Assembly: GCA_017861285.1 (NCBI GenBank)
Contig: JAGFXO010000001.1
Location: 115 to 64,114 of the forward strand
From: Geobacteraceae bacterium
Lineage (GTDB): Bacteria > Desulfobacterota > Desulfuromonadia > Geobacterales > Geobacteraceae
Direction: 5' to 3'
DNA: 64,000 bases
Positions 1-12,901 of the stretch are shown here, in pieces; within the stretch, counting starts at the first letter, position 1; each line of letters begins with the position of its first letter. The notes under the pieces are model-generated. The model ran no database searches, was not told where the DNA came from, and was given only the letters and a program-made list of their open reading frames with translations. A program made the position numbers and the translations under genes.

Positions 1-120
1 GGAACTCAGCGCCTGCGCGACAGCCCGCGCCTCTCCCAGGGCAGGCCCGATGGAGCCAATGGCCATGGTCATTCCCGATATAATGATTGAAACCATTCCG
101 ATGAGCCCGATGTTATCCAT
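1..120 (-). CDS. atpE: ATP synthase F0 subunit c, N-terminal 40 codons only; the gene runs off the window start
   Basis: Manual reverse translation gives MDNIGLIGMVSIIISGMTMAIGSIGPALGEARAVAQALSS. ATG is at 118-120, AAGGAG lies 8 nt upstream, and the start is 1 nt after the atpB stop. The peptide is a hydrophobic helix-1 with a GxGxG-like segment. Confidence 0.8.
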   Translation of the reverse strand, partial: MDNIGLIGMVSIIISGMTMAIGSIGPALGEARAVAQALSS

Positions 121-121
121 A

Positions 122-772
122 TCATAAATCTCCTTTTATTCCTTTTTCTTCCGTGACGTCTTTGCGGCTCCGGATCGAGGTCGCGGAGGCAATATACACC
201 ATGGCAAGCACAGCAAAAATGTACGCCTGGATCAGCCCGATCAGAAGCCCAAGCACCTGCATGACAATGGGGAAAAACAGCGGCGCGGCCAGAGCCAGAG
301 TTCTCGAAAATTCCCCGATAATCTCGAACGGCAGCATGAAGACAGACGGTTTGATATAGTGCTTCAGGTATCCTGCGACCCCCCCCTGCAGTATCCCGTA
401 AAAAGGAACGGCTATGAAGACGCATATCGCCAGTGCTGCAGTGGTGGAGAGGGAGCCTGTCGGCGGTTCGAAACCGGGAACGATTTCCAGGCTGTTGGAG
501 AAAGCGATAAACAGAAAAAGCGTGCCGACAAAGGGAAGAAAACGTCCCGGTTCCTGGCGGCTGGTCGAACGGATCTGGTTGTTCATATAGCTCACCAGGG
601 TTTCGAGCAGGTTTTGCCTGCGGGTCAATTTCGTTTGATCGGACAGTTGGCGCGTTGACAGCCACGAACCAATTACAAGAATTGCCATGACAATCCAGGT
701 ATAAAGGATGGTTGCATTGAGCTTTACCGGCCCCCACTGCCACAATATCGTGCTATCCGGACTCAGTTCCAT
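122..772 (-). CDS. atpB: ATP synthase F0 subunit a (N-type operon); the canonical RLFGN arginine segment appears absent
   Basis: 216 aa. The C-terminus IQAYIFAVLAMVYIASA and the segment EIIGEFSRTLALA are typical of subunit a. The gene sits between atpR and atpE. Confidence 0.85.
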   Translation of the reverse strand: MELSPDSTILWQWGPVKLNATILYTWIVMAILVIGSWLSTRQLSDQTKLTRRQNLLETLVSYMNNQIRSTSRQEPGRFLPFVGTLFLFIAFSNSLEIVPGFEPPTGSLSTTAALAICVFIAVPFYGILQGGVAGYLKHYIKPSVFMLPFEIIGEFSRTLALAAPLFFPIVMQVLGLLIGLIQAYIFAVLAMVYIASATSIRSRKDVTEEKGIKGDL

Positions 773-784
773 TTCATTCTTCCT

Positions 785-1084
785 TCAATGTCCAGGGAGA
801 TCCAATTCATTCCCGACGGGCTTCCAGATACGCACCAGGATTATCCGCATCACCATGAATCCAGACATAACAGCCAAAAGCCTCTCCCACGATCCGGCCA
901 TTACCAGAAAGAAGCCGGACAACGTCACAACGAGGCGCCCCAGGTAACTGCACAGCGTCAATAGGGCCGGACTGGCAGAAAACGGCAGGCGCTTCACCGT
1001 AAGCCACAATCCGCCGAAGTAGAATAGTCCGAGAACCATACCGCATGTTCCGGCAAGCAGAAGTTGCCCTAAATATGAATCCAC
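785..1084 (-). CDS. atpR: N-ATPase accessory membrane protein AtpR
   Basis: 99 aa, 3 predicted TM helices, with a GGLWLTVKRL motif. Its position between atpQ and atpB matches the atpDCQRBEFAG operon layout. Confidence 0.7.
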   Translation of the reverse strand: MDSYLGQLLLAGTCGMVLGLFYFGGLWLTVKRLPFSASPALLTLCSYLGRLVVTLSGFFLVMAGSWERLLAVMSGFMVMRIILVRIWKPVGNELDLPGH

Positions 1085-1107
1085 GGCATTCCTCCTCCAA
1101 TTTCATT

Positions 1108-1411
1108 TCAATCATTTTTCGACACATGCTCAATCCAATACCATGCGTTGAGGCACCCGCAAATAAGGCCTCCGAACAGCAGCATCAACGTCCATGAAAA
1201 ACGGCCCGGCCATCGTGAGTCAATCCAGATACCCAGAGCAATTCCGATCAGCGTGGGGATCACCACAGACCAGCCGACAATACCGAAAATACTTAATCCG
1301 AACCACAGACTATGGTCATTTTCCCGACGGGCCTTTATCCTCAGGGCTTCTTTTGACGCAACGGATTTTTTCATCTGCGCCGTCACTTCCGGTTTTTCTT
1401 TCTTTCGTGGA

Positions 1412-1419
<8 letters not shown>
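1108..1419 (-). CDS. atpQ: N-ATPase accessory membrane protein AtpQ (AtpI/AtpZ-like)
   Basis: 103 aa, with a basic N-terminus followed by 2 TM helices. It overlaps the atpC stop by 8 nt and sits in the position expected for atpQ. Confidence 0.65.
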
Positions 1420-3210
<1,791 letters not shown>

Positions 3211-3267: not shown

Positions 3268-3299
3268 GAAAAAAATCCCCCTCTTGAAATGGGAGGGGG
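3268..3299 (-). terminator. Rho-independent terminator after the radical SAM gene
   Basis: On the minus strand: CCCCCTC / 9-nt loop / GAGGGGG, followed by ATTTTTTT. It lies 80 nt downstream of the stop at 3379. Confidence 0.6.
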
Positions 3300-3378: not shown

Positions 3379-4725
3379 TCACGAAAGGCACTGAAACAGC
3401 CCCATGCACCAGAAGCAGTCACCGCAGGGAACGGTATTGGTATAGCAATCCTGTTCGAATTCCTCGCAATAGATATACTCGCAGGGGAGCAGGTTGCAGT
3501 TGGAGCAAAAGGGATACTCGTGCTTGAGAACCTCCTCCCGAAAAGCACGATAGCCGGGATCATTCCAGATTTCCAGGATACCTTTGTCCCTCAGGTTGCC
3601 GAAGACCTTCTTGTTGACATACTTCTTTCGTCCGGAAAAATGGCATTGGAATTTGTGCCAGAGGAAGTAGCACGGGTGAATTTCGCCGTCCCAGGAGACA
3701 AACACGCCGCCATTATCTATGAAATCGCACTTCCTTTCGTTTTTGGGCGCGGCACCCGGCAGTCGCAGATCCAGCCCCGTCTCTTCGGCGACAATCCTGG
3801 CCCTGTCAAAGGTTTCGGCCAACTCGTCAGCCATGGCGACATCCCGCTTCGTCAGGTTCTCCAGGTGCAGGAATATATCGCGCGCCCTTGCCTGAGCGAT
3901 CATTTCCAGGACAAAATCCACCATCCGCTGCTCTTCCGCTGTCCTCAGATACTTGCAGTGATAGATATGAAAGAAATCGCTGATGTCTATTCCCTGCTCC
4001 TCTCCCTTCTTCCGCCATGTCGTATAAAGCTCCACCGCTTCCTGAGTATTGTAATCATAGGCAATCTGGGAGACATGACTGCTGTCGTAAGGAAGAAGAT
4101 GGGAGACGATGGCAAAGGAAACCCCCAACGAGGCGGTCCATCTGAGCACATCGGGAAGTTGATGGATGTTGTCGCGCATGAGGACGAACTCAACGCCGAC
4201 CTGAAGGTTGTTTTCGGGGTGCCGTTTCCGTGCCGTGTTCAGCGCGATGAACGCCTGCTCCAAATCTTTCACCTCACCCCCTTCCCGGATCTTGCGGAAG
4301 GTATCGGGGCAGATGGCGTCCAGGGAGAGACATATCCGGTCAAGCCCGGCCCGAACCAGTGATGACGCCCGGGTTTCATCAAGCAGGAGTCCGTTTGACT
4401 GGAAACCTACCCAGCTTCCCGGGGGCATCAGCTCTTTCCCCCTGCGGATGAAGGCTTCGAGGTCGGGATGAAGGAGCGGCTCTCCGATGCCGTTGAGGAC
4501 CAGCGCCTCGGCTTTCGACAGGGACGGTTCAAGTGCCTCGAAAGTTTCGAAAGTGAGGTCACCATCCTCCAAACCGCTTCCCATGCTCTGCTTGACGCAC
4601 ATATGGCACTTCATGTTGCAGCGGGTGGTTGTCTCCACGAACAGGCGGGACGGATAGCTCCTGAGAGCAGGCAACAAAGATATTTCAGGGTCGTTGATCT
4701 TAGTTTGCAATGCAGTGTTATTCAT
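3379..4725 (-). CDS. Radical SAM protein with a C-terminal SPASM-like Cys-rich domain
   Basis: 448 aa. CNMKCHMC (CxxxCxxC) near the N-terminus; GEIHPCYF plus CSNCNLLPC...CGDCFWC...C clusters at the C-terminus. The start codon overlaps the upstream gene's stop (ATGAATAA). Confidence 0.9.
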   Translation of the reverse strand: MNNTALQTKINDPEISLLPALRSYPSRLFVETTTRCNMKCHMCVKQSMGSGLEDGDLTFETFEALEPSLSKAEALVLNGIGEPLLHPDLEAFIRRGKELMPPGSWVGFQSNGLLLDETRASSLVRAGLDRICLSLDAICPDTFRKIREGGEVKDLEQAFIALNTARKRHPENNLQVGVEFVLMRDNIHQLPDVLRWTASLGVSFAIVSHLLPYDSSHVSQIAYDYNTQEAVELYTTWRKKGEEQGIDISDFFHIYHCKYLRTAEEQRMVDFVLEMIAQARARDIFLHLENLTKRDVAMADELAETFDRARIVAEETGLDLRLPGAAPKNERKCDFIDNGGVFVSWDGEIHPCYFLWHKFQCHFSGRKKYVNKKVFGNLRDKGILEIWNDPGYRAFREEVLKHEYPFCSNCNLLPCEYIYCEEFEQDCYTNTVPCGDCFWCMGLFQCLS

Positions 4726-4930
4726 AATTCAACTCTTCACATTTCCTTTTGATTTTGTCGATCGGCATCCGGCGGACCTTCTCCGCCATCTTTATTGCCT
4801 TGAAGATTTCCGCCGGACTCGCCCCGGCTTCGGATGCAGCATTGCAATGGTACTCCAGGCACGGTTCTCAACAGGCTGCCACCGATGCCCCTATGGCAAC
4901 CAACTCAAGGGTTTTCTTGTCAAGGGGCAC
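4718..4930 (-). CDS. AhpD/carboxymuconolactone-decarboxylase-like small protein with in-frame TGA (candidate selenocysteine) at codon 21
   Basis: Manual translation: GTG-PLDKKTLELVAIGASVAAC-[TGA]-EPCLEYHCNAASEAGASPAEIFKAIKMAEKVRRMPIDKIKRKCEELNYE-TAA. GGGAGGA lies 4 nt upstream of the GTG. TGA at 4868-4870 falls at the first Cys of the CxxCxxxH family motif. The ORF track misses it because of the TGA. Confidence 0.7.
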
Positions 4931-4944
4931 TGATCCTCCCTTCG

Positions 4945-6060
4945 CTACGGCATTGTTACATCTTCAACTTTGCACTTCATCTGGTCGGCGAAGTACTTCC
5001 GCTGGAAATAGAAGGCAAGGTTTACCAGGCTGATGAGCACCGGCACCTCGACCAGCGGTCCGATGACCGAGGCGAAAGCCTGCCCGGAATTGAGCCCGAA
5101 CACCGAAATGGCAACGGCAATTGCCAACTCGAAGTTGTTGCTGGCGGCGGTGAACGAAAGTGTCGCGCTCTTCTCGTAGTCGGTGCCGAGTTTCTTGCTC
5201 ATGTAGAAGGAGACCACGAACATGACAACGAAGTAAATGAGAAGCGGAATCGCAATCACGACCACGTCAAGGGGCTGACTCAGGATCTTGTCACCTTGCG
5301 TGGCAAACATGACCACGATGGTGAAAAGGAGGAAAATGAGGGTCAAGGGGCTGATAACAGGGGCGAATGATTTATCGAACCATTCCTTACCCTTTATACG
5401 CGTAAGACTGAAATGGGTAATTAGTCCGGCGATAAAAGGGATACCCAGGTAGATGAAAACGCTCTTGGCAATTTCACCCATGGTTATATCCACCACCGCC
5501 CCCTTGATGCCGAACAAAGGGGGAAGAATCGTGACGAAGACATAGCAGTAAACGGAAAAGAAAAGAACCTGGAAAATGGAGTTGAAAGCCACGAGACCGG
5601 CGGCATATTCACGGTCGCCGCAGGCCAGATCGTTCCAGACGATCACCATGGCGATGCAGCGGGCCATCCCCATCATGATGAGGCCGATCATATATTCAGG
5701 ATAGTTGTGAAGAAAGACGATGGCAAGCACAAACATAAGGATCGGTCCCACCACCCAGTTCTGAATCAAAGAGAGGCCGAGAACCTTCTTGTTCCTGAAA
5801 ACCAGAGGCATCTCCTCGTACTTGACCTTGGCCAGGGGCGGGTACATCATCAGGATCAGGCCGATGGCGATGGGTATGCTGGTCGTACCCACCTGAAACT
5901 TGTTGATGAGGGCCTTTGAGGCGGGCACGAAATACCCGAGAGCGAGACCGAGAAACATTGCCGCGAAGATCCAGACAGTGAGGTAGCGGTCCAGAAAAGA
6001 CAGTTTCTTCATGAGTCCTTGCATTGTTGTACGTCCTCCTTGGGGAATGAGATCAAACAA
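4945..6060 (-). CDS. acr3: ACR3-family arsenite efflux permease
   Basis: 371 aa polytopic membrane protein. The N-terminal [13 protein letters not shown] segment is typical of Acr3. It is adjacent to arsC and arsR. Confidence 0.9.
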
Positions 6061-6080
6061 CGGGGTAAACCCGGATATTA

Positions 6081-6491
6081 TCAGGGCGCAAAATAAGCGA
6101 GCAAAGCCTCTTTGATTTCATCCCGGACCTTGCGGAAAACCTCCATAATCTCCTCTTCACTGCCTGTTGCCTTTGCCGGATCGGAAAAACCGATGTGTAC
6201 CCGCTCTCCCCCACCCGTAAACAGGGGACATCGATCCCGTGCGTCTCCGCACAGGGTGATAGTGTGGTCAAACTGCTGCCCGGAAAATGCATCGACATTT
6301 TTTGAACGGTGGCCGGATATGTCTATACCGATCTCCCGCAAAACCTCAATGGCCCTCGGATTGATAAATGAGGCCTCGGTCCCTGCGGAAAAGGCTTCGA
6401 GACGGTCACCAAGGAAATGATTGGCGATTCCTTCCGCCATTTGGGACCGGCAGGAGTTCGCAGTGCAGAGAAAGAGGGCTTTTTCTTTCAT
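6081..6491 (-). CDS. arsC: Arsenate reductase, thioredoxin-coupled LMW-PTPase type
   Basis: 136 aa. CTANSCRS (CX5R P-loop) plus the [11 protein letters not shown] cysteine pair. Confidence 0.9.
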
Positions 6492-6545
6492 CTATGTCTC
6501 CAGCAATCATTATTGATTCGAATAGGCCGGATTCACATCCGACTT

Positions 6546-6788
6546 TTACTTTTTCTTCCAGACAACCTTTTTACTGGATACGAGCCAATTGCATTTATTG
6601 CAGAAAAATCCCTGACTGCATTTGGAACAGATGATGATTTTTTCGCCGCAGTCGGGGCAGTAAGCCTCCATGTCGAATTCATCGTAAACGGTATAGCGGT
6701 CACAGTTCTTACAAAAAAACCTGGCTCCTTCCGAAGTAAGTTCTTTTATCATTTCCGAACCGCATTCACGACATAATCTTCGTACCAT
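6546..6788 (-). CDS. Small Cys-rich zinc-ribbon protein, function unknown
   Basis: 80 aa with five CxxC pairs (C6/9, C26/29, C44/47, C54/57, C63/66) and a basic tail. GGGAGAG RBS. Located between arsR and arsC. Confidence 0.6.
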   Translation of the reverse strand: MVRRLCRECGSEMIKELTSEGARFFCKNCDRYTVYDEFDMEAYCPDCGEKIIICSKCSQGFFCNKCNWLVSSKKVVWKKK

Positions 6789-6932
6789 GCCACTCTCCCT
6801 CGAGGATGTCTCAACCCCTTCCCGGGAATATTCGAAGAATATCTGATCCCGGACATCGGGTCAGCCTGTGGGCTATGGACGAACCTGCACGGCTACACCC
6901 CCAGACCGTTTCAAAAAAATCCTTCTCTCTCC

Positions 6933-6952
6933 TTATCCGCATGAGCGGATAA
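6933..6952. promoter_or_regulatory. Perfect 8-4-8 inverted repeat TTATCCGC-ATGA-GCGGATAA downstream of arsR (operator or RNA hairpin)
   Basis: Read directly from the sequence. It shares the TATCCG core with the palindrome upstream of arsR. On the minus strand a T7 run follows 12 nt later. Confidence 0.4.
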
Positions 6953-6966
6953 CCTTCATAAAAAAA

Positions 6967-7305
6967 TTACGCGCAGCGATTGTGCTGGCTAAATTCACAG
7001 AGCCGCTTTCGGTCGGCAGCGGCAACCTCCAAATCCGGAAGGTTTTCCCGAAGGGAATCGAGCAGACTGTTTTGCAGATTTTTCACGTTATCCAGTATTG
7101 AATAGTACATCCATACCCCTGCGCGCCGGTCATCCACCCATCCGGCATTCTTCAAATAGGCAAGATGCCGTGACACCGTCGACTGGGGAAGCTGCAGCAC
7201 TGCCATGATGTCACAGACACAGAGTTCCCCGTCCAGCAACAGGCAGATGATCCTCAGCCGGGTTTCATCCGACAGGGCTTTAAACATTCGGGCTGTAGTT
7301 TTCAT
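6967..7305 (-). CDS. arsR: ArsR/SmtB-family arsenite-responsive repressor
   Basis: 112 aa counted from the internal ATG at 7305; the track ORF extends to 7485. ELCVCD metalloid-binding motif and QSTVSRHLAYLKNAG wHTH. Confidence 0.85.
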   Translation of the reverse strand: MKTTARMFKALSDETRLRIICLLLDGELCVCDIMAVLQLPQSTVSRHLAYLKNAGWVDDRRAGVWMYYSILDNVKNLQNSLLDSLRENLPDLEVAAADRKRLCEFSQHNRCA

Positions 7306-7313
7306 GATAAAAC

Positions 7314-7327
7314 TATATCCGGATATA
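7314..7327. promoter_or_regulatory. Perfect 14-bp palindrome TATATCCGGATATA immediately upstream of the arsR start (candidate ArsR operator)
   Basis: Read directly from the sequence, 9 nt upstream of the arsR ATG in the arsR/cysM divergent region. Confidence 0.45.
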
Positions 7328-7654
7328 CGGCTATATTCAAGCAAAAAAAATCTTACCGGATGTGGCCCGGTTTCAATCGAATCCTGCCGACCCCGCTTGC
7401 AATAGCGCGCCCCAGGACAGAAATTGACATAGCGTACACCGAGGCCTGCCGCGGCACTGCCTCCGTCGCCAGGTTCGTCTATCACCTTGTCGGAATATTA
7501 ATTGGCTGTTTGTGTCCATCCGGCTTGAAATTAAATCCCGTACATGATATTTTCGTATACGCTCTTTTTGCGCCATAAAAGCCGCACATTGAATGTACTT
7601 TACAAAAACAATAGATGGTCAGACAACAATATTTTGCCGGCAAGGGGTATCCAA

Positions 7655-8623
7655 ATGAAATACTGTGAAAGCTTGCGGGAAAACGATACGTTCCCGGAAG
7701 CAAGCGACTGCGGGAGGAGCGTCATAGAATCAATCGGCAACACCCCCCTGGTCGGATTGAGAAACCTGGGCAGAAACCCGAAAGTCAGAATTCTCGCAAA
7801 GCTTGAAGGCAACAACCCGGGTGGCTCGGTCAAGGACAGACCTGCATATTATATGATTTCCAAGGCGGAGGAATGCGGCGAACTGACCCGCGAGAAGACC
7901 ATCCTCGAAGCAACGTCGGGCAACACGGGAATCGCCATTGCCATGATCGGCGCAGCCAGGAATTATCGGGTGAGACTTGCCATGCCGGCATGCGTCAGCC
8001 TGGAAAGGAGGAGCATCCTCGAGGCCTACGGTGCGGAGGTTGTCCTCTCCCCCGCCCACGAGGGCACTGACGGGGCAATCCGGCTGGCCCGCCGGATCCT
8101 GGAGGAAAACCCCGATAAATACTATATGCCGAATCAATACGCCAACATAAATAATCTGCTGGCCCACTATGAAACAACCGGACCGGAGATTTTTGCCCAG
8201 ACCGGTGGCGACATCGACGTCTTTGTTGCCGGGATGGGTACGACGGGAACCTTGATGGGAGTTGGCAAATACCTGAAAGAGAAAGACCCGTCAATCAGGA
8301 TCGTCGGGGTAGAGCCCCGGATCGGCCATAAAATACAAGGCCTCAAGAACATGCAGGAAGCAATTGTCCCGCCTCTCTACCAGCCGGAAAAACTTGATGA
8401 AAAGATCACCGCCGAGGACGAGGAAGCTTTTGAAACGGCGAGAATCCTTGCCATTCGCGAGGGGCTTTTTGTCGGCATGTCCGGGGGAGCCGCAATAGCA
8501 TGCGCCCTGAAACTCTCTGAAAGCATGGATAGCGGCACGATCGTTACCATCCTGCCTGACCGGGGAGACCGGTATCTCAGCACTACACTCTTCAGATCCG
8601 TATGTGCGTGTTGCCCGCCCTGA
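7655..8623 (+). CDS. cysM: Cysteine synthase (CysM/CysK family, CysM-like) with a Cys-rich C-terminal tail
   Basis: 322 aa from the ATG at 7655. KLEGNNPGGSVKDRPA, TSGNTGIA and DRGDRYLST motifs. Extra tail RSVCACCPP. Confidence 0.85.
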   Translation: MKYCESLRENDTFPEASDCGRSVIESIGNTPLVGLRNLGRNPKVRILAKLEGNNPGGSVKDRPAYYMISKAEECGELTREKTILEATSGNTGIAIAMIGAARNYRVRLAMPACVSLERRSILEAYGAEVVLSPAHEGTDGAIRLARRILEENPDKYYMPNQYANINNLLAHYETTGPEIFAQTGGDIDVFVAGMGTTGTLMGVGKYLKEKDPSIRIVGVEPRIGHKIQGLKNMQEAIVPPLYQPEKLDEKITAEDEEAFETARILAIREGLFVGMSGGAAIACALKLSESMDSGTIVTILPDRGDRYLSTTLFRSVCACCPP

Positions 8624-9183: not shown

Positions 9184-12100
9184 TCAGGCCATAACGATCA
9201 GCAGATCGTCCTTGTCAACCTTGTCCCCCTCTTCGAACTTCACTTCCCTTATCTTGCCGTCTTCCTTGGCCTTGATATTGGTCTCCATCTTCATTGCCTC
9301 GGTCACTATGAGAATATCGCCGGCCTTGACCTCGTCACCGACCCTTACGCATACCTTGAGAACTCTCCCCGGCATCGGCGCTCCGACATGAAGTGAATTG
9401 AACTTGTCCGCCTTCTCATGTTCCGAAACCTCCGAAACAACAGATTGGTCGCGCACCGTTACTTGACGTGCCAGACCGTTCAATTCGAAGTAAATGTTCC
9501 TGGTGCCGTCCTGATGGACACTGCCGATCGCATTGAGCTTGATAATCAGCGTTTTCCCCGGATCTATTTCCACGGCAGTTTCCTGGCCGGGCTCCAGCCC
9601 GTAGAAGAAAATCGGCGTGGGGATTACGGATGTATCCGAAAAGGTTATCTGGTGTTTGTGGAATTCCGGATAAACGTTCGGGTAGAGAATATGGGAAAGA
9701 AGGCTCTTTTCATCGACCGACCAGCCGAATTTCGCCTTAACCTTCCTTTTCTCCTCCTCGAAGTCCACCGGTTCCAGCAACTCGCCGGGACGGCAGGTTA
9801 TCGGCTCCTCTCCCTTGAGAACAATTTTCTGCAGCTTTTCCGGGAATCCCTGGTACGGTTGTCCGATCATGCCCTTGAAGAAGCCGACAACCGACTCGGG
9901 GAACGTCAATTCCTCACCCTTGGTGAAGACATCCTCGACGCCAAGGTTGTTTTTGACCAGAAACATCGCCATATCCCCGACAACCTTTGACGAGGGCGTA
10001 ACTTTGATGATATCCCCGAAAAGGATATTTACCTGGTGGTACATCTCCTTGCACTCTTCCCATCGGTCAAGCAGACCGAGTCCGGCAACCTGAGGCTTGT
10101 AATTGGAATACTGGCCACCGGGAATCTCATGGTGGTAGACCTCCGCGGTCCCGCTCTTCAGGCCGGATTCGAATGGAGCATAATAATCCCTTACAGTCTC
10201 CCAGTAATTGGCCAGTTTCTGCAGACCTGCCTCGTTGAGCCCCGGGTCCCACTCCGTGCCTCTCAGCGCTGCAATTATCGCATTGAGATTCGGTTGGGAC
10301 GTCAACCCGGAAATCGATGAGAGTGCGGCATCGACGATATCCACACCTGCCTGGCAGGCCATGAGTATCGAGGCCTCCCCATTCCCTGAAGTATCGTGCG
10401 TATGAAAGTGGACCGGTATGCCGATCTCCTCTTTCAGCGCTTTCACCAGCTTATACGCGGCAAATGGCTTGAGAAGGCCCGCCATGTCCTTGATACCGAG
10501 GATATGAGCACCCATCCGCTCAAGTTCCCTGGCAAGAGAAACATAATAGTCGAGAGGGTACTTGTCCCGCTTCGGATCGGTAATATCACCTGTATAGCAG
10601 ATGGAAGCTTCGCATATCTTGCCCGTATTCCGGACAGACTCCATGGCCACCTTCATACCCCTGATCCAGTTGAGGGAATCGAACACCCGGAACACGTCTA
10701 TTCCCGACTCAGCCGCCTCTGCAACGAAACGCTGTACAACATTGTCCGGGTAGTTCGTATACCCCACGGCATTGGAACCGCGCAGCAGCATCTGGAACAG
10801 GATGTTGGGGGCGGCTTCCGACAACTTGTGCAGCCTCTCCCACGGACATTCCTTAAGGAAACGCATGGCAACGTCGAATGTCGCGCCACCCCACATCTCA
10901 AGGGAGAAGAGATCCGCCGCAAGATGCGAAGTCGGCTCGGCAATCCTGAGCAGATCATGGGTTCTGACCCTTGTCGCGAGCAGCGACTGGTGCGCGTCGC
11001 GCATCGTAGTGTCGGTAATCAGCAGCCTGTCATGCTCCATGATCCATTGTACAAGCCCTTCTGCGCCCTGTTCCCGTAATCTGTCGCGGGTTCCGTAAGG
11101 GCGCGGAGCCGTCGTGTCCATGTCCGGAATTTTCGGCTCGAGCAATTCCGCAGACCTGAGCGGTTTGCTGATGCCTGGAGAACCGTTGACGATCACATTG
11201 CCAATGAAATTGAGTATCTTCGTCGCTCGATCCTTTTTCTCGCTCATTTTCATGAGTTCGGGATGCTTGTCGATAAAGGAGGTGTCACATTGCCCGTCCA
11301 GGAATATCGGGTGAGTAACGACATTTTCCAGAAAAGGTATATTGGTCTTGACTCCGCGAATGCGGAACTCCCGCAGCGAGCGGTCCATGACCTGGGCAGC
11401 CTCTCTCAGGGTGTGCCCCAGCGTGCTGATCTTGACGAGCAGGGAATCGTAAAACGGTGTAATGTGTGCACCGGTAAAGGCATTCCCGGCATCGAGACGC
11501 ACACCGTAACCGCCCGGAGAGCGGTATGCCTTGAGTGTACCGAAATCGGGAGCAAAATTGTTCGCCGGATCCTCGGTAGTAATGCGGCACTGGATCGCAT
11601 ACCCGCGCATGTCGATGGCCTTCTGGTCGGGAATGCCGATTTCCGGGTCTGATAATTTGTACCCCTCCGCCACAAGAATCTGTTTCTGAACCAGATTCCT
11701 CCCTGTTATCATCTCGGTGACGGTATGTTCCACCTGAATGCGGGGATTCATCTCGATAAAATAAAAGGTACCTTCCTGGTCAAGCAGAAATTCAATGGTC
11801 CCGGCATTGCGGTATTTAACCTTCCGGGCGATCTTGAGGGCCTCGTTGCAAATCTCTTCACGTATTTCCGGTGTCAGGCTGAGTGACGGAGCAAACTCGA
11901 CCACTTTCTGGTGACGTCGCTGAATGGAGCAATCGCGCTCGAAGAAATGTACCAGGTTGCCATGATTGTCACCAAGGATCTGTACCTCGATATGCTTCGG
12001 GTTTTCGATGAATCGCTCCAGGAAAACGGCCGGATTGCCGAAAGCTGTCTTGGCCTCGCTCCGCGCACTTGCAATCCCTTCTATCAGCTCCTTGCGATCG

Positions 12101-12627
12101 CGGGCGATGCGCATGCCACGACCGCCGCCTCCCGCTGCAGCTTTTACCATGATCGGGTACCCATAGTTCTTGGCAAATTTGAGGGCGTCCTCTTCAGACT
12201 CTATGGGTTTGTCGGTTCCAGGTACAACCCGTACACCGGCCGCTATTGCAACATGACGAGCGGCAATCTTGTCGCCCACGCTTCGCTGCATCCCGGCGGT
12301 AGGACCGATGAAAACGATCCCGGCTGCCTCGCATTTTTCAGCAAACTCAGGGTTTTCAGAAAGAAAACCGTACCCCGGGTGAATAGCGTCGACATTCTTC
12401 TTCCTGGCCAGTGAAATGATTTCGTCAATTCCCAGATAAGCATCAACAGGGCTCTTTCCCTTACCGATAAGATATGCCTCATCTGCCTTATATCTATACA
12501 GGGAGAGCTTGTCTTCCTGTGAATATATTGCTACCGTGTTGATGCCAAGTTCCGCACAAGCACGGAATATGCGGATGGCTATCTCTCCCCGATTGGCGGC
12601 CATTACTTTTTTGAATTTTCTTTTCAT
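9184..12627 (-). CDS. pyc: Pyruvate carboxylase, single-chain
   Basis: About 1147 aa from the ATG at 12627 (AGGAG RBS). Biotin carboxylase N-terminus, carboxyltransferase domain, and C-terminal biotinyl motif EAMKME. Confidence 0.95.
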   Translation of the reverse strand: MKRKFKKVMAANRGEIAIRIFRACAELGINTVAIYSQEDKLSLYRYKADEAYLIGKGKSPVDAYLGIDEIISLARKKNVDAIHPGYGFLSENPEFAEKCEAAGIVFIGPTAGMQRSVGDKIAARHVAIAAGVRVVPGTDKPIESEEDALKFAKNYGYPIMVKAAAGGGGRGMRIARDRKELIEGIASARSEAKTAFGNPAVFLERFIENPKHIEVQILGDNHGNLVHFFERDCSIQRRHQKVVEFAPSLSLTPEIREEICNEALKIARKVKYRNAGTIEFLLDQEGTFYFIEMNPRIQVEHTVTEMITGRNLVQKQILVAEGYKLSDPEIGIPDQKAIDMRGYAIQCRITTEDPANNFAPDFGTLKAYRSPGGYGVRLDAGNAFTGAHITPFYDSLLVKISTLGHTLREAAQVMDRSLREFRIRGVKTNIPFLENVVTHPIFLDGQCDTSFIDKHPELMKMSEKKDRATKILNFIGNVIVNGSPGISKPLRSAELLEPKIPDMDTTAPRPYGTRDRLREQGAEGLVQWIMEHDRLLITDTTMRDAHQSLLATRVRTHDLLRIAEPTSHLAADLFSLEMWGGATFDVAMRFLKECPWERLHKLSEAAPNILFQMLLRGSNAVGYTNYPDNVVQRFVAEAAESGIDVFRVFDSLNWIRGMKVAMESVRNTGKICEASICYTGDITDPKRDKYPLDYYVSLARELERMGAHILGIKDMAGLLKPFAAYKLVKALKEEIGIPVHFHTHDTSGNGEASILMACQAGVDIVDAALSSISGLTSQPNLNAIIAALRGTEWDPGLNEAGLQKLANYWETVRDYYAPFESGLKSGTAEVYHHEIPGGQYSNYKPQVAGLGLLDRWEECKEMYHQVNILFGDIIKVTPSSKVVGDMAMFLVKNNLGVEDVFTKGEELTFPESVVGFFKGMIGQPYQGFPEKLQKIVLKGEEPITCRPGELLEPVDFEEEKRKVKAKFGWSVDEKSLLSHILYPNVYPEFHKHQITFSDTSVIPTPIFFYGLEPGQETAVEIDPGKTLIIKLNAIGSVHQDGTRNIYFELNGLARQVTVRDQSVVSEVSEHEKADKFNSLHVGAPMPGRVLKVCVRVGDEVKAGDILIVTEAMKMETNIKAKEDGKIREVKFEEGDKVDKDDLLIVMA

Positions 12628-12901
12628 TTTCAGGGCTCCTGGATCACATTTTAATAGAAGCAAAACAAATTGCAGCGGGAAGAAAACCACCATTTCGTAT
12701 TAAAATAATGCAATCTTCCTGATTTTTCATACATTTCCAGTAATTTCGTATAAAACCAGATTCAAAAAACAATGTCAACCGGATAATTTTTCGCACACCA
12801 CAATACCAGAGCATTCATGGGATTCCATATAAATTCTTTCCATAATCCATACAACGTGTTACACTTCCCCGGTCAAAATTAAAACAAAGAGGAGAACTTG
12901 A

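Follow-up and report, generated by a model that had tools for sequence, protein, structure and literature searches.

Two radical S-adenosylmethionine (SAM) enzymes are known from ars operons, ArsS and ArsL, and both carry out arsenic-carbon chemistry (PMC8552651). ArsL, the arsinothricin enzyme, has a CX3CX2C motif at residues 194-201, three conserved cysteines and a single cluster, and is encoded together with arsM and arsQ (PMC8552651). New ars genes have repeatedly exposed new arsenic biochemistry, for example ArsM, ArsI, ArsS and ArsL. Here, we analyzed a stretch of 64,000 nucleotides from a Geobacteraceae bacterium (contig JAGFXO010000001.1; hereafter, the window) in which an ars operon ends with the genes of an AhpD-like redox protein and a radical SAM/SPASM protein. 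Ars operons are textbook material, and the family of the radical SAM protein, TIGR04311, is already catalogued. An ars operon with an embedded TIGR04311 gene and an AhpD-like partner carrying selenocysteine (Sec) or Cys was not found in the full-text literature searched, and an earlier mention is possible.

TIGR04311 is listed as ‘radical SAM/SPASM family putative metalloenzyme maturase’ (rSAM_Geo_metal). It is distributed, as here, among the Geobacteraceae and the Desulfuromonadales, with several paralogs per genome. The closest other family, TIGR04317 or ‘tungsten cofactor oxidoreductase radical SAM maturase’, is expected beside a gene for tungsten aldehyde:ferredoxin oxidoreductase (AOR), and we take it to be comparable to the cmo gene beside aor in Pyrococcus. 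Arsenite is an inhibitor of hydroxylase-type enzymes that contain molybdenum or tungsten.

Organization of the ars operon

The window contains a genuine arsenic operon, presumably controlled by ArsR, whose last two cistrons are accessory genes. Genes were called from the open reading frame (ORF) listing, three-frame translation and hidden Markov model scans (NCBIfam and Pfam). The order on the minus strand is arsR, a double zinc ribbon gene, arsC, acr3, an AhpD/CMD-like gene with an in-frame TGA, and the radical SAM/SPASM gene; all six are present in the order given by the first-pass annotation, which was made from the sequence alone. From upstream to downstream, the elements are:

7312-7340, minus strand: candidate sigma-70-like promoter (TTGAAT, 17 nt, TATAGT; 9 of 12 matches in a pattern scan)
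7315-7326, no strand assigned: 12-bp palindrome ATATCCGGATAT, enclosed by the arsR promoter-like site; candidate ArsR operator
6967-7305, minus strand: arsR, ArsR/SmtB repressor with HTH_5 (NF033788, 97.7 bits; PF01022, 68.6 bits)
6934-6951, no strand assigned: 18-bp palindrome TATCCG-N6-CGGATA in the spacer between arsR and the zinc ribbon gene; candidate second operator or intercistronic hairpin
6546-6788, minus strand: double zinc ribbon protein of 80 aa with five CxxC pairs (PF07191, 63.3 bits)
6081-6491, minus strand: arsC, LMWPc, of the low-molecular-weight-phosphatase (thioredoxin-coupled) type (PF01451, 74.2 bits)
4945-6024, minus strand: acr3, arsenite efflux permease (TIGR00832, 452 bits; cut-off 282.8)
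4718-4930, minus strand: AhpD/CMD-like redox gene of 70 codons with a GTG start; TGA at 4868-4870 read as Sec
3379-4725, minus strand: radical SAM/SPASM protein of 448 aa (TIGR04311; PF04055 and PF13186)
3269-3299, minus strand: intrinsic terminator (CCCCCUC/GAGGGGG stem, 9-nt loop, A and then U7; -13.6 kcal/mol)

The gene set is that of a canonical ars operon: ArsR carries the As(III)-site motif ELCVCD (read from the sequence), ArsC is of the LMWPc type (on TIGR02691 it reaches 150.6 bits, under the 174.3 cut-off), and the permease is Acr3. From arsR to the AhpD-like gene, the spacers measure 178, 54, 56 and 14 nt when acr3 starts at the ATG at 6024. This start has an AAGGAGG ribosome-binding site and agrees with the N-termini of homologs, and it is preferred over a TTG at 6060 because of the better ribosome-binding site. 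Among the spacings first reported, 54 nt, 14 nt and a final overlap hold, whereas 20 nt between arsC and acr3 applies only to the TTG start. The overlap consists of 8 nt, ATGAATAA, shared by the AhpD-like and radical SAM genes, which are probably translationally coupled.

The terminator lies 79 nt past the radical SAM stop codon, with a 7-bp G+C stem at 3277-3299 and U7 at 3269-3275. It was overlooked by the pattern scan because its 9-nt loop exceeds the loop-length limit of the scan. Within the operon, the same scan returned neither a convincing terminator nor a strong internal promoter, in agreement with the earlier placement of the sole convincing terminator after the radical SAM gene. Because of the gene overlap, the short spacers, the single terminator and the conserved embedding described below, the radical SAM gene is an integral and very probably co-transcribed part of the ars operon. 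The same four features uphold the earlier suggestion that it is probably co-expressed with the arsenic detoxification genes.

The promoter-like site ends 7 nt ahead of the arsR ATG. ATATCCGGATAT begins 21 nt before this ATG, and the motif stands at the identical distance in at least 10 orthologous loci (one mismatch allowed). As an additional observation, this placement of ATATCCGGATAT and the promoter points to an arsR mRNA with no leader or almost none. The second palindrome, TATCCG-N6-CGGATA, forms a perfect 8-bp hairpin straight after arsR in the window, with no T-run directly following. It occurs in 28 copies, compared to about one expected, in 2.04 Mb (surveyed loci and window), and nearly all copies are found ahead of arsC, at 17-59 nt, or ahead of a stand-alone acr3, at 32-168 nt. 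Loci carrying it include L004, L005, L012, L033, L043, L048, L093, L095, L116, L118 and L167-L169. Because it recurs ahead of arsC and acr3 elsewhere, an operator is a more likely reading of it than a terminator. Both palindromes are candidate ArsR operators, and as such they are candidates for the design of Geobacter-type biosensors.

Linkage of the radical SAM gene to ars genes

To survey the neighbourhoods of the radical SAM gene, 160 loci (80 from genomes and 80 from metagenomes) were taken out of about 460 matches, and the window proteins were mapped onto them by tblastn. The orthologous clade was defined by more than 78% identity and comprises 26 loci, 24 of them with usable upstream sequence. 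In 23 of these 24, the radical SAM gene is preceded on its own strand by acr3, arsC or arsR, the end of which lies 25-325 nt away. Several gene orders occur: acr3 may directly precede the radical SAM gene, as may arsC with acr3 further downstream, or arsR. In L171-L173 the radical SAM gene lies inside the operon, in the order zinc ribbon, ArsR, ArsC, radical SAM, ArsA/D and Acr3.

Similar arrangements are found outside the orthologous clade. At 59-61% identity, L043/L116 and L048/L118 show arsC, acr3, one or two zinc ribbon genes and then the radical SAM gene. At 65% identity (L033/L106), ars genes lie 2.2 kb upstream, and at 54% identity a locus from the Deferrisomatales (L075) reads arsR, arsC, acr3, radical SAM. 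Besides the orthologous clade, ars linkage thus arose in four or more other lineages, whose identity is 54-65%. In addition, a longer TIGR04311 paralog of 560 aa (650.6 bits; internal duplication of about 110 aa) adjoins arsR in L003, L005, L006, L011, L016, L062 and L174. This paralog (L016:14116-15798 and L174:10320-12002) is often divergent from a unit of arsR, a thioredoxin-like gene (ArsE/MTH895) and an ArsM-like gene.

These neighbourhoods bear on whether the radical SAM gene could be a mere passenger, carried by synteny in one Geobacteraceae lineage with no role in arsenic stress. Linkage within the ortholog clade could stem from one ancestral event, most family members are not ars-linked, and, as the closest genome ortholog (L001, see below) illustrates, the gene can also occur in a housekeeping neighbourhood. 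On the other hand, the linkage has survived rearrangement (after acr3, after arsC, after arsR, or between arsC and arsA), it was established anew in the at least four other lineages, one of them in the Deferrisomatales, and in the window the overlap and short spacers leave no space for a separate promoter. That the linkage was kept through rearrangement and that recruitment occurred repeatedly are strong arguments against a passenger gene, which we consider improbable. The ars embedding is, on this comparative evidence, not due to chance; the survey of gene-neighbourhood conservation proposed in the first-pass annotation did find homologs beside ars genes, nearly throughout the informative orthologs and also in four lineages outside their clade. 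This makes the radical SAM gene a good candidate for a new arsenic-stress gene, and the survey offers a first clear physiological handle on TIGR04311, a family that is named and uncharacterised.

Family and architecture of the radical SAM protein

The radical SAM protein is a member of TIGR04311, scoring 655.8 bits against a cut-off of 400, with the complete model (1-423 of 423) aligned to residues 24-447. It shares with the family the CxxxCxxC motif, the SPASM domain and the Cys-rich C-terminal tail. The runner-up NCBIfam model is TIGR04317, which matches in two stretches with 257.7 bits, under its 380 cut-off. Compared to TIGR04317 proteins, the window protein has about 100 aa more and a helical insert at residues 230-330, and it has ars genes as neighbours instead of the adjacent AOR gene. 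The remaining NCBIfam matches (MoaA, NirJ, PqqE and others) reflect the radical SAM core only. The earlier view that the enzyme is of the SPASM type and distinct from ArsS agrees with this ranking, in which TIGR04311 is at the top and the ArsS model is missing from the 25 best matches.

Alignment of 53 homologs reveals 14 invariant cysteines: C36, C40 and C43 of the SAM cluster, C132, and a further ten within the C-terminal half, among them those of the SPASM motifs and the CGDC tail. From this number of cysteines, three or more clusters would be expected. The invariant motifs in that half are C333-x13-G347-x4-C352 and C407-x2-C410-x4-C415. The motifs CNMKCHMC, GEIHPC, CSNCNLLPC and CGDCFWC, pointed out previously, are all present, and most of their cysteines are among the invariant ones. 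Compared to ArsL, the enzyme has its CX3CX2C motif at residues 36-43 rather than 194-201, 14 invariant cysteines rather than three, a SPASM domain, and no adjacent arsM.

Pfam domains in the protein are PF04055 (50.7 bits) and PF13186 (59.2 bits) and nothing else. An AlphaFold model has a pLDDT of 77.5 and a pTM of 0.80, with low confidence in the Cys-rich tail, as expected for a model without clusters. Foldseek neighbours of this model are BlsE, DesII, SkfB, PqqE, BtrN, MoaA, SuiB and anSME, and a search of PDB sequences returned matches to the core only (BtrN, MoaA, NifB and PqqE).

Because several of these structural neighbours (SkfB, SuiB, PqqE and anSME) are SPASM enzymes, and SPASM enzymes often modify adjacently encoded Cys-rich peptides, the co-encoded double zinc ribbon was considered as a substrate. 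The enzyme would then install thioether or other cross-links in it, yielding an As(III)-binding chaperone or sensor. A zinc ribbon gene is found in most ars-linked loci, together with arsR, and in none of the non-ars loci, and one or two copies immediately precede the radical SAM gene in L043, L048, L116 and L118. However, most orthologous loci place it upstream of arsR, away from the radical SAM gene, it is missing from the available flank of L002, L075 and L090, and AOR-linked family members have no such partner. Furthermore, the zinc ribbon matches a folded-domain family, PF07191, rather than a leader-core peptide. The enzyme itself, with two Pfam domains only and a core that begins at residue 24, shows no RRE/PqqD-like leader-recognition domain in the Pfam scan. 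The small neighbouring genes all encode folded-domain proteins, so that there is no adjacent precursor peptide of the kind that accompanies SPASM maturases of ribosomally synthesized and post-translationally modified peptides. In our judgement, maturation of the zinc ribbon has only a slim chance of being the function of this enzyme.

The AhpD-like protein

With U scored as Cys, the AhpD-like protein matches PF02627 (48.6 bits; cut-off 23) and TIGR00778 (41.5 bits; cut-off 27.8), both across the TGA. Its motif, U-E-P-C, is of the CxxC type that characterizes thiol oxidoreductases of the AhpD/CMD fold. Homologs were sought with a word index, which reports close relatives only; the 70-aa AhpD-like protein gave 9 matches and the 80-aa zinc ribbon gave 17. 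Close homologs of the AhpD-like protein (77-87% identity) are all flanked by acr3 and the radical SAM gene, in L016, L093, L094, L167 and L174-L177. Wherever the AhpD-like gene occurs, namely in these loci, in L170 and in the window, it overlaps the start of the radical SAM gene by 8 nt.

In 8 of the 9 database homologs, the window's A-C-U-E-P-C reads A-C-C-E-P-C, and L016 and L167 also have Cys; identity across the TGA codon is 73-86%. L093 (2735-2947) has G-C-D-A-U, with TGA at the second position of the motif, and L170 has a copy without both cysteines (KSEPY). Since Cys aligns with the TGA in homologs, the in-frame UGA is best read as selenocysteine. This reading, already adopted in the first-pass annotation, is well supported by the homologs and by the conserved coding sequence on both sides of the codon. 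Sec and Cys would thus appear to exchange at either CxxC position within one small redox protein. In a search for a selenocysteine insertion sequence, three folds around the UGA and folds of the Sec and Cys homologs were no better than shuffles (z = 0.19 and -0.71 for local folds), and the one conserved hairpin near the UGA is also present in Cys homologs. The window contains no sel gene, and Rfam and tRNA scans found neither a tRNA-Sec nor a riboswitch in it.

Most orthologous loci lack the AhpD-like gene. Its carriers fall into at least three subclades of the ortholog tree, which fits an ancestral gene that was lost repeatedly.

The adjacency of a radical SAM gene and an AhpD-like gene in an ars context had been likened, in the first-pass annotation, to the arsenosugar system, in which ArsS would be paired with a peroxidase-like partner. 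The parallel is superficial and did not survive the family scans: none of the enzyme's 25 best NCBIfam matches is an ArsS model (the weakest has E = 4e-6), and the AhpD-like protein matches no arsenosugar-partner family, its only NCBIfam matches at E<=0.01 being TIGR00778, NF041537, NF045649, NF041047 and TIGR00777. Moreover, the enzyme differs from ArsS in its SPASM architecture, with the ten invariant C-terminal cysteines, and the partner gene is dispensable here, given its absence from most orthologous loci. A divergent ArsS pair is therefore next to inconceivable, and identity with ArsS and its partner is effectively refuted at the family level by the NCBIfam scan.

Two of the five matches are families with a selenoprotein element, namely NF041537, an ArsM/AhpD selenoprotein fusion (weak local match of 37.9 bits; cut-off 510), and NF041047, the GSU3128 (seleno)protein family (weak local match of 30.1 bits; cut-off 110). 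The window protein shares with both the AhpD core, a CxxC-type motif with Sec and an arsenic-related context. Unlike them, it is a stand-alone protein of 70 aa whose gene is probably coupled to a radical SAM gene.

AOR context and the proposed function of the radical SAM enzyme

All sampled clades of the family score 578-660 bits on TIGR04311 and below the TIGR04317 cut-off, and genomes carry up to five TIGR04311 paralogs. An AOR gene lies 0.2-3.8 kb away in 22 of 134 non-orthologous loci, all of them in clades of 50-61% identity; these distant loci are where the family resembles TIGR04317, and this neighbourhood is presumably the basis of the curated TIGR04311 name. A gene for an ‘XdhC family aldehyde oxidoreductase maturation factor’ (NF045664, 414 bits) comes immediately after acr3 in L004 (14664-15776) and L005 (19993-21102), and in L009 (2412-3515) it follows the radical SAM gene.

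Because of the AOR context of the family and the occurrence of this AOR-type XdhC factor in ars islands, we tentatively favour, with somewhat less than even confidence, a role in maturation. As a paralog of a cofactor or protein maturase of the AOR type, the radical SAM enzyme would be induced by arsenite and would restore a thiol, dithiolene or Fe-S feature sensitive to As(III). The six genes would be transcribed from the promoter/operator ahead of arsR, possibly with a second operator behind arsR; As(III) would de-repress transcription, which would end at the single terminator. The enzyme would come from a maturase family that normally serves tungsto- or molybdopterin AOR-type enzymes, and its SAM cluster and auxiliary SPASM clusters would make or re-make a cofactor or protein feature poisoned by As(III). 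The AhpD-like protein, through its CxxC/UxxC motif, may supply thiol/selenol-disulfide redox chemistry to the radical SAM enzyme or to ArsC.

Several points weigh against this proposal. The maturase role of TIGR04311 and TIGR04317 is putative, having been deduced by the curators from gene neighbourhood, and its support for TIGR04311 is the AOR neighbourhood in the 22 loci. No AOR or XdhC gene was found in the window by tblastn. Many paralogs have neither ars nor AOR context; there are paralogs by genes for extracytoplasmic function sigma factors, by PabB-like or by unrelated genes, and the neighbourhoods of three non-ars paralogs revealed no common partner. Identity between the ars-linked clade and the AOR-linked clades is only about 50-60%, so that the former may have a new function. 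The closest genome ortholog, at 87% identity (L001, 10001-11347), resides among housekeeping genes and without ars genes, with rpoD/rlmL on one side and rph/ham1/tig/clpP/clpX on the other, and without an ars-type palindrome. Foldseek against the PDB gives generic SPASM/twitch neighbours only (TM 0.36-0.47), and such neighbours, as found with a predicted model, do not separate small-molecule from peptide substrates. Finally, the co-transcription and As(III) induction that the proposal invokes are predicted from the promoter-like site, the palindromes and the single terminator.

A different possibility is that the radical SAM enzyme acts directly on arsenicals. It might serve as an anaerobic C-As lyase or demethylase, taking methylarsenite or aromatic arsenicals as substrates and corresponding to ArsI without the need for oxygen. 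Alternatively, it might be a third type of radical SAM enzyme forming C-As bonds beside ArsS and ArsL. The AhpD-like selenoprotein would keep the arsenical or the enzyme thiols reduced. This is attractive because of the precedent of ArsS and ArsL and because, to our knowledge, anaerobes have no O2-independent C-As lyase. Embedding of the gene in ars operons is seen in five lineages. Further genes of the arsenic islands encode ArsM-like methyltransferases, ArsA, ArsP_1/DUF318 permeases, ArsE/MTH895 thioredoxin-like proteins and CcdA; at least 13 loci have an ArsM-like gene, an ArsP_1/DUF318 permease gene and an ArsE-type thioredoxin-like gene in the same island, and the second TIGR04311 paralog is divergent from the arsR-trx-arsM unit. 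In addition, there are known selenoproteins in which an AhpD domain is fused to ArsM, and to these the local match of the AhpD-like protein on NF041537 corresponds.

Other evidence speaks against organoarsenic chemistry. Near the operon in the window there is no ArsM-like gene, the only methyltransferase match (31%) being at 48.5 kb. Beyond the radical SAM core, the enzyme has no sequence similarity to ArsS or ArsL, and a search of the full-text literature turned up no paper linking a SPASM enzyme to arsenic. The other contexts of the family, AOR and housekeeping genes, are unrelated to organoarsenicals, and, judged by the AOR neighbours of other members, cofactor or protein maturation is no less strongly indicated than organoarsenic chemistry. 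We regard direct action on arsenicals as unlikely, if far from negligible. The more specific proposal, that the ars-embedded TIGR04311 protein is an oxygen-independent C-As lyase/demethylase or other organoarsenical enzyme with a dedicated Sec/Cys AhpD-like reductant partner, is a somewhat longer shot still. If true, the organoarsenic reading would close a gap in anoxic sediments and paddy soils that ArsI and ArsH, being O2-dependent, leave.

Geobacteraceae are dominant in iron-reducing, arsenic-mobilising aquifers and paddy soils. Whether through the maturation that we favour or through organoarsenic chemistry, the radical SAM/SPASM gene is a testable candidate, either for repair and maturation of arsenite-sensitive tungsten or molybdenum enzymes or for an anaerobic arsenic-transforming enzyme.

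Neighbouring genes

Just past the ars terminator lies an N-type ATPase-like operon (69-3207, minus strand) with atpD, atpC, small genes and atpB. By synteny with L170, the small genes match ATPase_gene1 and AtpR. The ars and N-type ATPase genes are also syntenic in L004, L006-L008, L062, L094 and L170. A link between the two operons was considered and rejected, since the ATPase operon adjoins in some loci only and lies behind the terminator.

On the other side, a cysteine synthase gene of the cysK/cysM type (7544-8623, plus strand) is divergent from arsR; it is also a neighbour in L033 and L106. Because the N-terminus of its listed ORF reaches about 55 aa beyond the family models, the real start is probably later. 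Further along, an ORF of 1169 aa (9184-12693, minus strand) appears by eye to be pyruvate carboxylase-like, with biotin carboxylase, carboxyltransferase and biotinyl domains.

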